From NCBI GenBank assembly GCA_964630405.1, contig CAZVUC010000092.1:7174-71173 (forward strand): DNA of 64,000 nucleotides. Direction: 5' to 3'. The stretch is from an uncultured Syntrophobacterales bacterium (lineage in GTDB: Bacteria > Desulfobacterota > Binatia > UBA9968 > JAJDTQ01). Below are positions 27,627 to 37,896 of this stretch, piece after piece. A program made the position numbers and the translations under genes. Position 1 is the stretch's first letter. The number at the start of each line of letters is the position of its first letter. Under the pieces are notes generated by a model, which had not been told where the DNA came from, did no database searches, and saw only the letters and a list, made by a program, of their open reading frames with translations.

Positions 27627-27640
27627 TGGCTCCCGGGGAG
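27627..27640. repeat. attR-like 14-bp direct repeat of the tRNA-Asn 3' end (TGGCTCCCGGGGAG)
   Basis: Identical 14-mer at 37821-37834 inside the tRNA-Asn gene. The integrase gene lies immediately inside. Confidence 0.55.
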
Positions 27641-27723
27641 TGCGCCGTCCCCGGTCCTCACCCAGTCTCAACCAGCCTCATAAGCATCCGATACTACTTA
27701 CTTTTCTTTCCGTCCCTTGTCTC

Positions 27724-27752
27724 TTGACGTCTCGCGAAGTTTCCTTTATTAT
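27724..27752 (+). promoter_or_regulatory. sigma70-like promoter for the integrase (TTGACG-N17-TATTAT), followed by operator-like repeats
   Basis: Consensus-like hexamers at 17-bp spacing in a locally AT-rich stretch. TTATCAC/GTGATAA inverted repeat at 27749-27769 and a second GTGATAAC at 27789-27796. Confidence 0.4.
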
Positions 27753-27814
27753 CACCAAAAAAGTGATAACCGAAGCAATATTCGGTTGGTGATAACTGGA
27801 AGGGAGACGAACCC

Positions 27815-28981
27815 GTGAAACGTCCCAAGGTGCTTTCCGCCGCCTTCGTGAGGTCCGTGACTCGCAGTGGCCGCTACGGCGATGGTGCAGGCGGTTTCGG
27901 CCTGTCACTGCTAGTGAAGCCGATGGCCAACGGGCGGCTGTCGAAGACATGGTCACAAAGGTTACGGATCAACGGCCGCCCTGTCAACGTCGGGTTGGGC
28001 AGCTACCCGGTGACGACCCTGGCCGAAGCCCGCAGCAAGGCGCTGGCGAACCGCCGGGCCGTGGAACAAGGGCGCCACCCTCGCGGCGGTGGCGTCCCAA
28101 CGTTCGAGGCGGCAACCGAAACGGTGATCGCCTTGCACGGTCCCTCCTGGAAATCGGGGTCCAAGACCGAAGCGCAATGGCGTAGCACGTTCGCGGAGTA
28201 CGTCTTCCCGCGAATCGGGCGCAAGCGCGTTGACGAAGTAACCGCCGCGGACGTGCTCTTGTTCCTAACCCCGCTGGCACTGGAGAAGCCGGAGACCGCA
28301 CGGAAGCTGCGTGCGCGCCTTGGTCTCGTGTTCAAATGGGCCATGGGCCAAGGTTTGCGAGGTGACAATCCGGCTGGCGAGAGTATCACGGGGGCGTTGC
28401 CACGGAACGGCTCCCGTGCAGTGCATCACCGGGCATTGCCGCATGAGCAGGTAGGTGACGCCATCCGCAAGGTGCGCGCCAGTGACGCCTACAAGGCCAC
28501 GGTGCTGTGTTTCGAGTTCTTGACTTTGACGGCGACCCGATCCGCAGAGGCGAGACTTGCTGCCTGGGACGAAGTCGACCGCGACAACCTCGTCTGGACC
28601 GTGCCACCGCCCAGGATGAAGAGTGGAAAGCCGCACGCGGTTCCTCTGACCAGCGCGACGTTGCGGGTGTTGGACGAAGCCGCCGAACTATCGGACGGGA
28701 GCGGGCTCGTCTTCCCAAGCGTAACGGGCAAGCCGTTGTCGGATTCCACGATCAGCAAACTCTGCCGGGAGAACGCCATCGGATGTGTTCCGCACGGGAT
28801 GCGTAGCTCTTTCCGTTCCTGGGCGGCGGACACCGGCCAGCCAGCGGAGGTCGCCGAAGAATGTCTCGCGCATGTCAACCCTAACAAGGTCGAATCAGCT
28901 TACCAGCGGAGCACGATGCTTGAGCGCCGGTCCGAATTGATGGCGGCGTGGGCGACGTACATTGAGGAGGACTGCCGATGA
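27815..28981 (+). CDS. int: tyrosine-type site-specific integrase (P4-like)
   Basis: Catalytic residues in context: 'LTATRSAEARLAAW' (Arg), 'HGMRSSFRSW' (HxxR), 'ESAYQRS' (Tyr). GTG start. Confidence 0.8.
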   Translation: MKRPKVLSAAFVRSVTRSGRYGDGAGGFGLSLLVKPMANGRLSKTWSQRLRINGRPVNVGLGSYPVTTLAEARSKALANRRAVEQGRHPRGGGVPTFEAATETVIALHGPSWKSGSKTEAQWRSTFAEYVFPRIGRKRVDEVTAADVLLFLTPLALEKPETARKLRARLGLVFKWAMGQGLRGDNPAGESITGALPRNGSRAVHHRALPHEQVGDAIRKVRASDAYKATVLCFEFLTLTATRSAEARLAAWDEVDRDNLVWTVPPPRMKSGKPHAVPLTSATLRVLDEAAELSDGSGLVFPSVTGKPLSDSTISKLCRENAIGCVPHGMRSSFRSWAADTGQPAEVAEECLAHVNPNKVESAYQRSTMLERRSELMAAWATYIEEDCR

Positions 28982-29529
28982 GAAAACCGCCTCTCTGGAC
29001 GTACGAAGGGAACGAAGCCGCGATATCCGCGTGGCTCGACGGTTTGTTGAACCGTGACTACTCGCCTGGCGGCCTACTGACCACATCGTGGCTCTACGGC
29101 GAGGCGATGCCCGATTCCACCTGGACACGAGACAAGGAGCTCCGGGAATGGATTGACGCGTCGGAAGACCACTTCCGGGCTTGGGACGGCTTACAGCACC
29201 TCCTGCGAACGCTGAGGCGAAACGAGCAACCCATAACCTTGCCCTTACTGCTTTGGGCACTGGACGTAGCCGACGGTACGAGAGAACCGCCAAAGAGGCC
29301 GCGCGGCCGTGACGCCAAAGAGAACCACTACCGAGACCTTGCCATCGTGATGGCGATCCATGCCTTGAACGCAGGCGATCTTCCTGAGTTCTCGAACACG
29401 GGGGAGTCCGTCATCGGGCTCGTGGCGAAGAAGGTAGGGCTGTCATATGAAGCGGTCCGCACCATTTGGCTCGAAAGAAGGGAATCCTACCTCCAAGACT
29501 ACCTCCTCCGCTGGGATCGCGGATTCTGA
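28978..29529 (+). CDS. hypothetical protein (integrase-proximal accessory gene)
   Basis: 183-aa ORF overlapping the int stop by 4 nt. No recognisable motif. Confidence 0.4.
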   Translation: MRKPPLWTYEGNEAAISAWLDGLLNRDYSPGGLLTTSWLYGEAMPDSTWTRDKELREWIDASEDHFRAWDGLQHLLRTLRRNEQPITLPLLLWALDVADGTREPPKRPRGRDAKENHYRDLAIVMAIHALNAGDLPEFSNTGESVIGLVAKKVGLSYEAVRTIWLERRESYLQDYLLRWDRGF

Positions 29530-29616
29530 GCAACTTCCCGTGGGTAAGGAAATCGGATTTGTTCATCACGACAGCGGTGGGCGCAGTGGGTATCTTGGGG
29601 GCGAAAGGAGGCTCCC

Positions 29617-36202: not shown

Positions 36203-36212
36203 GGGGAAGTTC

Positions 36213-37262
36213 ATGCGCTGGCCTTGGCAAAGAAGGGAGACGCGGGCGGACAGTTCCTACACCGACGCGCTGGTTGCGGCCATCACCGCCAACGCCAGCG
36301 GGCAGAGCACGGCCTTCCCTACCGCTACCGCGGCCCTGGAGGCGTGCGCTGGTTTCGTCGGCCGGGCGTTCGCGGCGGCCGAGGTATCGGCGCCGGCCAT
36401 GTACCGGGATGCCCTGGATCCGGCCTGCATGGCCCTGATCGGCCGGGCGCTCGTGCGGCGAGGCGAGTTGGTGCTCTTCATCGACGTCATGGACGGCGAG
36501 CTGCGGTTGCTCCCGTGCCAGACTCACGACGTGGACGGCGACACGGACCCGTCAACCTGGACCTACCGATGCACCCTGGGCGGTCCCTCCAGGACTCGGA
36601 CGTATGAGCCGGTCCCTGCCGCCGGCGTCGTCCACGTCGCCTATGCTCGCGACCCTGAAACCCCTTGGCGCGGCTATGGACCCCTCCAGGTAGCGCTCCT
36701 GGCCGGACGGTTGAGTGCCGAGACCGTGGCGGCCCTGGCCGACGAAACGAGCGGGCCGCGCGGCCATCTGCTCCCGGTTCCCGTCGATGGCGCTGACCCT
36801 ACGGTGACGGCGCTCAAGCAGGACCTGAAGAACCTGAAGGGCAAGGCGGCGCTGGTGCAAGGCGGGGATTGGGACAACACCGGCACTGGCGGCATGGCGT
36901 CGTGGAAGCCCAACCGGATCGGCTCGAACCCGCCCGACGCGCTGGTTAAGCAGGCGGACCTTGCCACCAGGGAGGTCTACGCCGCCTGCGGCATCAACCC
37001 GGCAATCTTCCAGGACGCCCAAGGCACAGCGGCCCGGGAGGCGTACCGGCAGGCGCTGTTCGGCTTGATAGCTCCCCTGGGGCGATTGGTGGCGGCGGAG
37101 TTGAGCGAGAAGCTGGAGGCCGAAATCTCCCTGGACTGGACGGAACTGCGGGCGTCCGATATCGCCGGCCGGGCGCGGGCGTTCCAGTCCCTGGTGGGCG
37201 GCGGCATGGACGTCGCCAAGGCTGCCGCCCTGTCGGGCCTAGTGGTGACTGAGGAACCGTGA
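36213..37262 (+). CDS. phage portal protein (HK97 family)
   Basis: 'MRWPWQRR' start and about 350-aa size are typical of HK97-type portals. Family call by resemblance. Confidence 0.6.
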   Translation: MRWPWQRRETRADSSYTDALVAAITANASGQSTAFPTATAALEACAGFVGRAFAAAEVSAPAMYRDALDPACMALIGRALVRRGELVLFIDVMDGELRLLPCQTHDVDGDTDPSTWTYRCTLGGPSRTRTYEPVPAAGVVHVAYARDPETPWRGYGPLQVALLAGRLSAETVAALADETSGPRGHLLPVPVDGADPTVTALKQDLKNLKGKAALVQGGDWDNTGTGGMASWKPNRIGSNPPDALVKQADLATREVYAACGINPAIFQDAQGTAAREAYRQALFGLIAPLGRLVAAELSEKLEAEISLDWTELRASDIAGRARAFQSLVGGGMDVAKAAALSGLVVTEEP

Positions 37263-37318
37263 GCACACCGTTCTGTGAGTGTGGCCGGGCTTTCTCACCA
37301 CCGAGAGCGGTTATAGTG

Positions 37319-37675
37319 TCATCCGAAGGGGTAACGCGGCCTTGAGGTAGCAACCAGCCTCGCCAACTCTGCCCGCGGATTCGGTGCAGGAGGCTTTACC
37401 GGAGTTGCGAGCAGCCTTGCCAGCTCTGACAGCCCCTTCATTGGCCTTGTCAGCTCCCTCATTGGCCTTGTCAGCTCTGACAGCTCCCTCATCGGTCTTG
37501 CGAGCTCCCTTAGAGGATTTGTAGCTGCAACCAGCCTCGCCAACTCTGCCCGCGGATTCGGTGCAGGCTTTGAAACATGTACTGATCGGCGTGGCTCTAA
37601 TTCGGACCGGCGCCGCCAACGACCTTCAAGGACGTCAAGTCGAAAGTAAAACTCAGCTTCAGTCAGGAACGCCAT
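37319..37675 (-). CDS. repeat-containing small protein (or noncoding repeat region) next to attL
   Basis: Perfect Shine-Dalgarno 'AAGGAGGA' 7 nt before the ATG at 37675. Encodes 7-8-aa repeats (ELxRPMREL) and two 'PAPNPRAELARLVA' copies arising from a 41-bp perfect DNA direct repeat. Confidence 0.3.
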   Translation of the reverse strand: MAFLTEAEFYFRLDVLEGRWRRRSELEPRRSVHVSKPAPNPRAELARLVAATNPLRELARPMRELSELTRPMRELTRPMKGLSELARLLATPVKPPAPNPRAELARLVATSRPRYPFG

Positions 37676-37820
37676 CTTGGTTTCCTCCTTTACGGAAACT
37701 TACCATGGGCGCCGCTCCGGACACAAGCTGCGGCATTCACAGGAAAGCATACCAGTGGTAATAACCAGAAATTCAATGTAGACAATAGGTGTGTAATATC
37801 AAATAGTTATAAAGAAGTAG

Positions 37821-37896
37821 TGGCTCCCGGGGAGGGACTCGAACCCCCGACAAAGTGGTTAACAGCCACCTGCTCTACCGACTGAGCTACCCGGGA
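37821..37896 (-). tRNA. tRNA-Asn (anticodon GUU)
   Basis: Reverse complement gives a 76-nt cloverleaf. Acceptor TCCCGGG/CCCGGGA, D-arm GCTCAGTCGGTAGAGC, anticodon loop CTGTTAA, T-arm GGGGGTTCGAGTCCCTC, 3' CCA. Confidence 0.85.

Follow-up and report, generated by a model that had tools for sequence, protein, structure and literature searches.

What is a 10.2-kb block of DNA that begins with a phage integrase gene and ends with a complete set of phage head genes doing at the end of a tRNA gene in an uncultured Syntrophobacterales bacterium? The locus is part of contig CAZVUC010000092.1 (assembly GCA_964630405.1), of which 64,000 nucleotides were analyzed (the whole stretch is referred to here as the window). 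An original prediction, made by reading the letters without database searches, described the block as a phage satellite resembling those phage-inducible chromosomal islands that form capsids (cf-PICIs), and named a decayed prophage as the alternative. We propose, with a probability of roughly 70%, that the element is an intact integrative satellite that forms its own capsids and works in the manner of cf-PICIs, and that it represents a separate and previously undescribed lineage. The cf-PICI-like interpretation is supported by the gene content when compared by function and by 14 relatives of the element, from which we infer the satellite behavior itself.

Insertion at the tRNA-Asn gene

A tRNA-Asn gene has the element inserted at its 3' end, as a discrete unit of 10.2 kb between 14-bp repeats. 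The 14-mer TGGCTCCCGGGGAG has two exact copies, and no more, in the whole 64-kb window, the count stays at two when one mismatch is permitted, and the expectation from shuffled sequence is 0.10, with two or more matches in 0 of 100 shuffles. The second copy lies at the end of the minus-strand tRNA-Asn(GTT) gene, which is the sole tRNA that ARAGORN finds in the window and is confirmed by Rfam (68 bits; no other RNA family was matched in the Rfam scan), and the repeat is thus the reverse complement of the tRNA 3' end, with CCA included. The pair of exact 14-mers, with the right copy forming the tRNA 3' end, was part of the original prediction and is confirmed by pattern count, ARAGORN and Rfam alike. 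The borders are as follows.

27627-27640, no strand: distal att repeat (attL), an exact 14-bp copy of the tRNA-Asn 3' end
37821-37896, minus strand: tRNA-Asn(GTT) (ARAGORN, Rfam), of which the 3' end at 37821-37834 is the proximal att repeat (attR)

The two repeats are 10,194 bp apart (10,208 bp with both copies counted) and the tRNA gene is transcribed toward the interior of the element. The spacing between attL and the integrase gene is 175 bp, and in the relatives described below it is 130-199 bp, or 58 bp in one of them (L042). A search of ~12 kb to the left and right of the element found no other degenerate copy of the tRNA end. The predicted attP junction of an excised element would read ...AAGAAGTAG-TGGCTCCCGGGGAG-TGCGCCGTCC... 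and the predicted empty attB would read ...CCCGGAGATA-TGGCTCCCGGGGAG-GGACTCGAAC....

The genes that flank the element are of the housekeeping kind (a GFA-family protein, a Mut7-C RNase, an aminopeptidase, ABC transporters and oxidoreductases), and no phage-like genes were found outside the repeats. Tail or lysis genes just beyond the repeats, which had been named beforehand as the sign of a larger prophage, were looked for in these flanks; since the flanks are housekeeping and without such genes, no larger prophage is concealed there.

Genes for integration, heads and packaging

The open reading frames (ORFs) between the repeats are densely arrayed on the plus strand, several of them with a start codon that overlaps the stop codon of the gene before, and their coding nature is supported by the GC content of third codon positions (GC3), which is 0.72-0.87 in the genes of the element compared with ~0.9 in host genes. 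All of the following are on the plus strand.

27724-27752: sigma-70-like promoter, TTGACG-17-TATTAT, upstream of the integrase gene (10/12 positions in a consensus scan; pattern match only)
27815-28981: tyrosine integrase with P4/CP4-57-type architecture (PF13356, PF22022, PF00589)
28978-29529: orf183, its start overlapping the integrase stop codon; no family match
29617-29814: AlpA-family regulator or excision factor (PF05930, E=8.6e-21)
29811-31052: AAA_25 (RepA-like) ATPase, a presumed replication helicase (PF13481, E=6e-32)
31168-31503: orf111 (81 aa if the start is at 31258), a small helical protein and candidate small terminase from its position upstream of TerL
31506-31772: orf88, directly upstream of TerL; a GC3 of 0.81 supports coding
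31843-33342: large terminase, TerL (phrog_9, E=2.8e-56)
33339-33623: HNH endonuclease, translationally coupled to TerL (PF01844, E=1.8e-8)
33727-34914: HK97-fold major capsid protein (PF05065, E=3.7e-9)
35011-35577: prohead serine protease, S78 (PF04586, E=7.4e-12; TIGR01543, 31.8 bits)
35535-35861: head-to-tail adaptor, HK97 gp6-like (orf108)
35861-36202: head-closure (completion) protein (orf113; family PF05521)
36213-37262: portal protein (PF04860, E=5.5e-11, above the gathering score)

The integrase contains the Arm-DNA-bind_3, Phage_int_M and Phage_integrase domains, scores 122 bits against NCBIfam PRK09692 (under the cutoff), and is 33-54% identical to the integrases of the relatives. 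The PHROG matches of the AAA_25 ATPase cover the helicase portion of phage primase/helicase proteins, and the relatives have different replication modules in this slot, including primases or O-like initiators. The best cultured relatives of TerL are those of HK97-like coliphages (26% identity, E=1e-16). The start of the HNH gene overlaps the TerL stop by 4 nt, and HNH adjoins TerL in the relatives too; an HK97-type TerL with a coupled HNH protein is a hallmark of HK97-like cos packaging. A second promoter-like site was found by the consensus scan upstream of the capsid gene. The capsid protein reaches 25.5 bits against TIGR01554 (cutoff 27.5), with its N-terminal ~110-160 residues falling outside the match to the capsid fold. 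The head-closure protein of the window gave no direct family match and was assigned through its homologues, 5 of 8 of which match PF05521 (best E=4.5e-8). Read from left to right, the head and packaging genes run TerL-HNH-capsid-protease-adaptor-closure-portal, which puts the portal last.

Profile searches with Pfam, PHROGs, NCBIfam and PADLOC thus return the gene list much as the original prediction described it: a P4-type integrase with its own sigma70-like promoter (three Pfam domains, with the promoter a pattern match only), AlpA, a RepA-like ATPase, TerL with an HNH partner and a complete HK97-type head module (Pfam and PHROGs, with closure via homologues). The predicted absence of tail, lysis and recognizable small terminase (TerS) genes from an element of ~10 kb is likewise borne out, as no ORF of the element matched a tail, holin or lysin family in these four collections. 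Five of the ten element proteins scanned with NCBIfam match models, all under the curated cutoffs, and the other five match none; hence such elements are probably invisible in current genome annotation.

Relatives of uniform size in several phyla

A collection of 5.8 billion proteins contains more than 2,250 homologues of the capsid protein, and an exhaustive search of its 50%-identity representatives gave 2,706 matches at E<=1e-3 and 641 clusters at E<=1e-30. Among 50,697 phage records, the capsid and portal proteins had no tblastn match and the whole element had no megablast match, and literature searches turned up no description of such elements in sponge symbionts or, among the papers listed, in these phyla. 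The original prediction had raised the possibility of a new satellite family in a high-GC lineage, and these figures not only support that idea but extend it to multiple phyla. A scan of one genome per species gave 43 loci, all in metagenome-assembled genomes (MAGs), which are labelled as Thermodesulfobacteriota, Binatia, Acidobacteriota (Vicinamibacterales and Bryobacterales), Alpha- and Gammaproteobacteria and Chloroflexota/Dehalococcoidia. Going by isolate names (RHO3, COS4, IRC3 and Langseth), many hosts of the family may be sponge symbionts. A capsid scan of Joint Genome Institute (JGI) metagenomes returned 5 loci, none on a circular contig.

In nearly all of the 43 loci, tblastn with the window proteins recovers the order TerL-HNH-capsid-(protease)-adaptor-(closure)-portal, and the core ORFs of the window element are full length against these relatives. 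The integrase and AlpA genes are usually 3.5-5 kb upstream of the capsid gene; alternatively, the integrase directly follows the portal. What carries the argument is that 14 of the relatives, in MAGs labelled as four to six phyla, retain the head and packaging module and have, 9.4-10.9 kb away from a tRNA gene and across the element from it, a 13-53 bp repeat of the tRNA 3' end. Their targets are tRNA-Val, Asp, Pro, Lys, Asn, Glu, Ala, Arg (three elements), Ser, Cys, Met and Thr, that is, 12 further tRNA gene types, or 13 types for the 15 elements that include that of the window. Repeats of at least 13 bp were found for 19 of 32 testable tRNAs, compared with 1 of 32 reversed probes and 1 of 160 shuffled probes. 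The 15 elements measure 10,019 +/- 372 bp (mean and standard deviation; range 9.4-10.9 kb).

Clustering of the ORFs places protease, TerL, capsid and portal in all 15 elements, an adaptor or closure protein in 13 and the integrase cluster in 12; the stretch from integrase to TerL varies, as does the part that follows the portal. The variable proteins of the relatives include replication initiators, primases, helicases, an integrase and a transposase, and no tail or lysis family is found among the matches listed for their non-core proteins (25 families). Some relatives have an extra Neck1/HK97-gp10-like protein, and some have toxin-antitoxin-like genes after the portal. The nearest relative, L051, is 91% identical to the window element in capsid, 89% in protease and 85% in portal. 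Its adaptor is 61% identical compared with 81-91% for capsid, protease, portal and closure. Between phyla, capsid identity reaches 71%, in a comparison of an alphaproteobacterial with a Chloroflexota element that are both on Mb-scale contigs, a value close to the best within-phylum ones when closely related pairs are set aside. From sequence comparison, therefore, the family appears to have circulated across phyla over evolutionary time.

Two relatives are circular. L036 (9,849 bp, 55-bp terminal overlap) carries a coverage of 1463x in its contig name, and L050 is 10,220 bp in length with a 127-bp terminal overlap and a GC content of 0.70. Both are distant, at 37-39% capsid identity to the window element, and no integrase was detected in either. 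L036 shares the head module of the window element, but its adaptor domain is the N-terminal part of a protein of 694 aa, and upstream of its portal gene is an HK97-gp10-like gene; L036 could be a relative with a free-living or lytic way of life. Other candidates for free molecules were rejected: the 9-10-kb contigs in the capsid match list are low-coverage long-read contigs of about read length, and L047 is a provirus cut from a 95-kb contig.

Several variations were seen in the family. One alphaproteobacterial MAG (L008) has two complete head and packaging modules in tandem, at 8199-13919 and 15542-20933, with a single integrase detected upstream, and these look like tandem satellites. In L051 (4044-5739) and in another member (L047/L055), TerL and HNH are inverted as a cassette with respect to the capsid gene, which makes the packaging cassette a movable module. 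Some relatives (L006, L015, L034, L052 and L053) have an extra gene inserted after that for the capsid and before that for the protease, which encodes ~137-149 aa and is absent from the window element, and in the first three of these it encodes a P-loop motif (GPAGSGKS-like). The adaptor homologue of L018 is 178 aa in length and several others are 145-179 aa, with C-terminal extensions of repeated beta-strand-like motifs that could bear on tail or receptor interactions.

Comparison with known satellites and phages

As defined in SatelliteFinder, cf-PICIs have an integrase, a regulator (AlpA, MerR or Stl), replication genes, HNH, TerL, portal, protease, capsid, adaptor and connector but no tail or holin genes; the definition comprises 11 components, with variants of 9 or 10 being accepted (PMC10085698). 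They use cos packaging, and their tail-less heads capture phage tails, with the adaptor and connector setting which tails are compatible (bioRxiv 10.1101/2025.02.11.637232). Compared by function, the window element has 9 of the 11 components, among them the integrase with AlpA, TerL, HNH, portal, protease and capsid. Of the other two, TerS is not recognizable, and for the primase-replicase there is the AAA_25 ATPase with its match to the helicase portion; tail and holin genes, which the definition forbids, turned up neither in the element nor in its flanks. Like cf-PICIs such as EcCIEDL933 and KpCIDSM30104, it is a small integrative island with an integrase, AlpA and a replication module, and with its own TerL, HNH, portal, protease, HK97-fold capsid, adaptor and connector. 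It differs from them in that no TerS is recognizable, an AAA_25 ATPase takes the place of a primase-replicase, and the capsid and portal have no phage relative at the BLAST level. The hosts also differ, being uncultivated Chloroflexota, Acidobacteriota, Thermodesulfobacteriota/Binatia and Proteobacteria for the element family but Enterobacteria, Pasteurellaceae and Firmicutes for cf-PICIs. The portal-last gene order, too, is probably unlike that of described cf-PICIs. How distant the sequences are, where the portal stands in the gene order and which hosts are involved all speak for a separate lineage that follows the same strategy, which would agree with the multiple origins reported for cf-PICIs (PMC10085698).

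With the HK97-like lambdoid phages (HK97, HK633, HK75 and mEpX2) the element shares the type of TerL with its HNH partner, the capsid, the S78 protease and a gp6-like adaptor. These phages are, however, 37-42 kb by record length, compared with 10 kb of head and packaging genes only in the element, and their gene order is different; they also carry tail, lysis and immunity genes. The satellite P4 (genome ~11.6 kb) resembles the element in its P4-type integrase, its AlpA-family protein and its integration at a tRNA 3' end. P4 is not known to encode a capsid, a portal or a terminase, and it remodels the capsids of P2 by means of Sid, whereas the element has a capsid and portal of its own, such that integrase and AlpA are all they have in common. 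The Pfam, PHROG and NCBIfam scans turned up no P4-type sid/psu/delta or alpha families, although no sid- or psu-specific query was made. Classical PICIs, including the Staphylococcus aureus pathogenicity islands, lack portal, adaptor and connector and use helper capsids, whereas the element has portal, adaptor and closure proteins. The phiRv1 and phiRv2 elements of Mycobacterium tuberculosis are also ~10 kb in size and have encapsidation genes with an incomplete virion set. MulchRoom and MiniFlayer of Streptomyces are described as small capsid-encoding satellites without a full virion gene set (PMC10690885). Both pairs are unlike the element in integrase type, gene order and hosts. An intact temperate prophage would have tail, lysis and immunity genes over tens of kb, in contrast to 10.2 kb between housekeeping flanks, and unlike a gene transfer agent the element has an integrase and att repeats, a family at 13 tRNA gene types and no tail genes that could be found.

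Proposed mechanism

The known task of adaptor and closure proteins is to connect a head, once filled, with a tail that is built apart from it. Since both are present in the element and tail and lysis genes are not, a mechanism like that of cf-PICIs is the most economical one. Infection by a helper phage, or its induction, would activate AlpA, and the element would be excised by its integrase and replicated by the AAA_25 ATPase. The capsid protein would form, together with the portal and the protease, a small head sized for ~10 kb, with the N-terminal ~110-160 residues of the capsid protein probably serving as an internal scaffold. TerL with HNH would then cut and package unit-length element DNA in an HK97-like cos reaction, and the adaptor and closure proteins would complete the head and allow the tails of a co-resident phage to dock. 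The particles would be freed through the lysis of the helper, and in a new cell the DNA would integrate at tRNA-Asn. For the window element itself, helper dependence, induction through AlpA, replication driven by AAA_25 and the position of cos are what we infer.

A limit on packaging to unit length would be expected to give just such a narrow range of sizes. The P4 head has T=4 geometry and holds 11.6 kb and, by analogy, ~10 kb suggests a capsid no larger than that head. The faster divergence of the adaptor in the nearest relative (61%) fits the role of the cf-PICI adaptor and connector in tail compatibility. More tentatively, we consider it possible that a large lineage, locked in size at ~10 kb, crosses phyla by means of its own heads and any available phage tails, without a canonical TerS and with some relatives existing as integrase-free circles.

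Several observations weigh against the satellite proposal. Neither a helper phage nor an excised circle was observed for the window element, nor were an empty attB site or particles, and a pattern search of the JGI metagenomes for its empty attB gave 0 matches. Exact look-ups of the GFA and capsid proteins led to two Logan contigs, both of the window element, of which one reaches the left junction and represents the integrated form and the other is internal; the flanking Mut7-C and ABC transporter proteins, looked up in the same exact way in the hunt for an empty site, gave no record. The circular relatives are distant and without a detectable integrase, such that they do not prove excision for the integrase-bearing members. 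The att core is short at 14 bp, no primase domain was found in the AAA_25 ATPase by Pfam or PHROGs, and four small ORFs of the element, each <=183 aa, have no annotation. Searches of Pfam, PHROGs and NCBIfam gave no TerS match for any of the ORFs. From their position alone orf111 and orf88 are TerS candidates. The orf111 protein had no family match and a search of 5.8 billion proteins returned itself alone; it has a 36% match in L051, a similar small protein is seen by eye directly upstream of TerL in L003, and its single-sequence AlphaFold2 model (pLDDT confidence 57) was too poor for a fold search. There was no significant match for orf88 in Pfam, PHROG, PADLOC or NCBIfam, and by PHROGs the genes upstream of TerL in the relatives are replication initiators, with no TerS.

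Alternative explanations

The decayed prophage that the original prediction kept as its alternative would be an HK97-like temperate phage that lost its tail, lysis and immunity genes and is now inert. It would account for head genes of phage type, for a TerL that is distantly HK97-like and for the lack of excision evidence for the window copy in the Logan contigs and JGI metagenomes, but the core ORFs are all full length against the relatives and nothing phage-like lies beyond the repeats. Moreover, 15 independent elements at 13 tRNA gene types share one gene set, a size of 9.4-10.9 kb and intact att repeats, and random decay would not yield 15 intact, att-bounded elements of the same size; the 14 independent relatives, with their intact core and tRNA att repeats, thus contradict this explanation, which we regard as very improbable. 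It is also conceivable that the head genes of the island serve the host, as a defense decoy or an encapsulin-like compartment, rather than transfer. HK97-fold proteins have been co-opted elsewhere and a defense island is 10 kb away, yet TerL, HNH, portal and head-completion proteins are packaging and tail-docking parts with no role in a compartment, the strict element size matches a packaging limit, and the unassigned ORFs fit no PADLOC model, with the AAA_25 protein only marginal to mad8. We find a host-serving function hardly credible.

A self-sufficient transfer particle, either a tail-less or minimal-tail mini-virus or a device like a gene transfer agent that moves its own 10 kb without borrowed tails, deserves more attention, if still unlikely. 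The ~10-kb circular relatives without an integrase, one of them at 1463x, are what such a particle might resemble, as are the 694-aa protein of L036 that starts with an adaptor domain and the C-terminally extended adaptors of some relatives, and no helper was identified. On the other hand, no ORF of the window element is large enough for a tail, fiber or lysin (its four unassigned ORFs being <=183 aa), and the adaptor, closure and, in relatives, Neck1/gp10-like proteins are those that join heads to separately made tails. For a domesticated gene transfer agent in particular, the integrase, the att sites and the varied tRNA targets do not fit.

Other features of the element and its neighborhood

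Within the element, orf183 matched nothing in Pfam, PHROG, PADLOC or NCBIfam and is not conserved in the relatives. An inverted motif of ~50 nt, ATTCGGTTTTCTTTCCCC.TCCCCTATAGGGAAAAACCAGAAAACAGAAACCGG, which is AT-rich by the standards of the element, brackets the core of the ATPase gene and is 88% conserved in L051, compared with 76% for the surrounding AAA_25 gene; it may be an origin-like cis site for replication or mark an invertible segment. Between the portal gene and the tRNA gene is a repeat-rich right end, for which cos, an origin or cargo are candidates, and its one ORF, which is doubtful, had no family match.

30090-30143, plus strand: left arm of the inverted ~50-nt motif, a candidate cis site such as an origin (repeat analysis, conservation)
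31021-31075, minus strand: right arm of this motif, at the 3' end of the ATPase gene (repeat analysis, conservation)
37263-37820, no strand: repeat-rich, lower-GC right end, 558 bp (repeat and GC scans)
37350-37390 and 37527-37567, no strand: 41-nt exact direct repeat (repeat scan)
37414-37510, no strand: 21/51-nt tandem repeats (repeat scan)
37319-37675, minus strand: doubtful ORF without GC3 bias, for which a good Shine-Dalgarno sequence and a promoter-like site were noted

The defense island that had been noted ~10 kb from the element is an Hma-type system in a lower-GC island (0.57-0.62) at 4918-17118 of the window (4.9-17.1 kb), all on the minus strand.

4918-7695, minus strand: HmaC (PADLOC)
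7702-8067, minus strand: DUF5615/PIN-like gene
8386-11544, minus strand: HmaB methylase (PADLOC)
11558-13675, minus strand: HEC-05-like gene, between HmaB and HmaA
13702-17118, minus strand: HmaA helicase (PADLOC)

The accompanying idea that the element itself might carry anti-phage cargo did not hold for the window copy, in which PADLOC recognizes none: the unassigned ORFs match no model, and the AAA_25 ATPase has a marginal match to mad8 only.

Two further patches of lower GC content were noted in the window. One (26400-27000, GC 0.57-0.59) is immediately outside attL and contains a weak CopG-antitoxin-like ORF (26401-26754, minus strand); it is possibly a toxin-antitoxin remnant or an older insertion, and no second tRNA fragment was found. 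The other (43759-46805) encodes a methyltransferase (43759-44412), a protein of the ERG4/ERG24 sterol-reductase family, which is unusual in bacteria (44431-45570), and a PIN-domain protein (46377-46805).

Implications

The family would extend the cf-PICI strategy to Chloroflexota, Acidobacteriota and Desulfobacterota-like lineages, in uncultivated and possibly host-associated communities, and the diversity of its capsid lineage (641 clusters at 50% identity, E<=1e-30) is comparable to that of many phage families. The mechanism will not surprise specialists in satellites, but the breadth of the family, its locked size, the lack of cultured relatives and the absent TerS are surprising. Without a recognizable TerS, the question arises of how packaging specificity is achieved, and from the narrow size (10.02 +/- 0.37 kb) a small capsid of one specific geometry is predicted. 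Finally, the capsid identity between phyla makes cross-taxon gene transfer by 'tail piracy' testable in natural communities.

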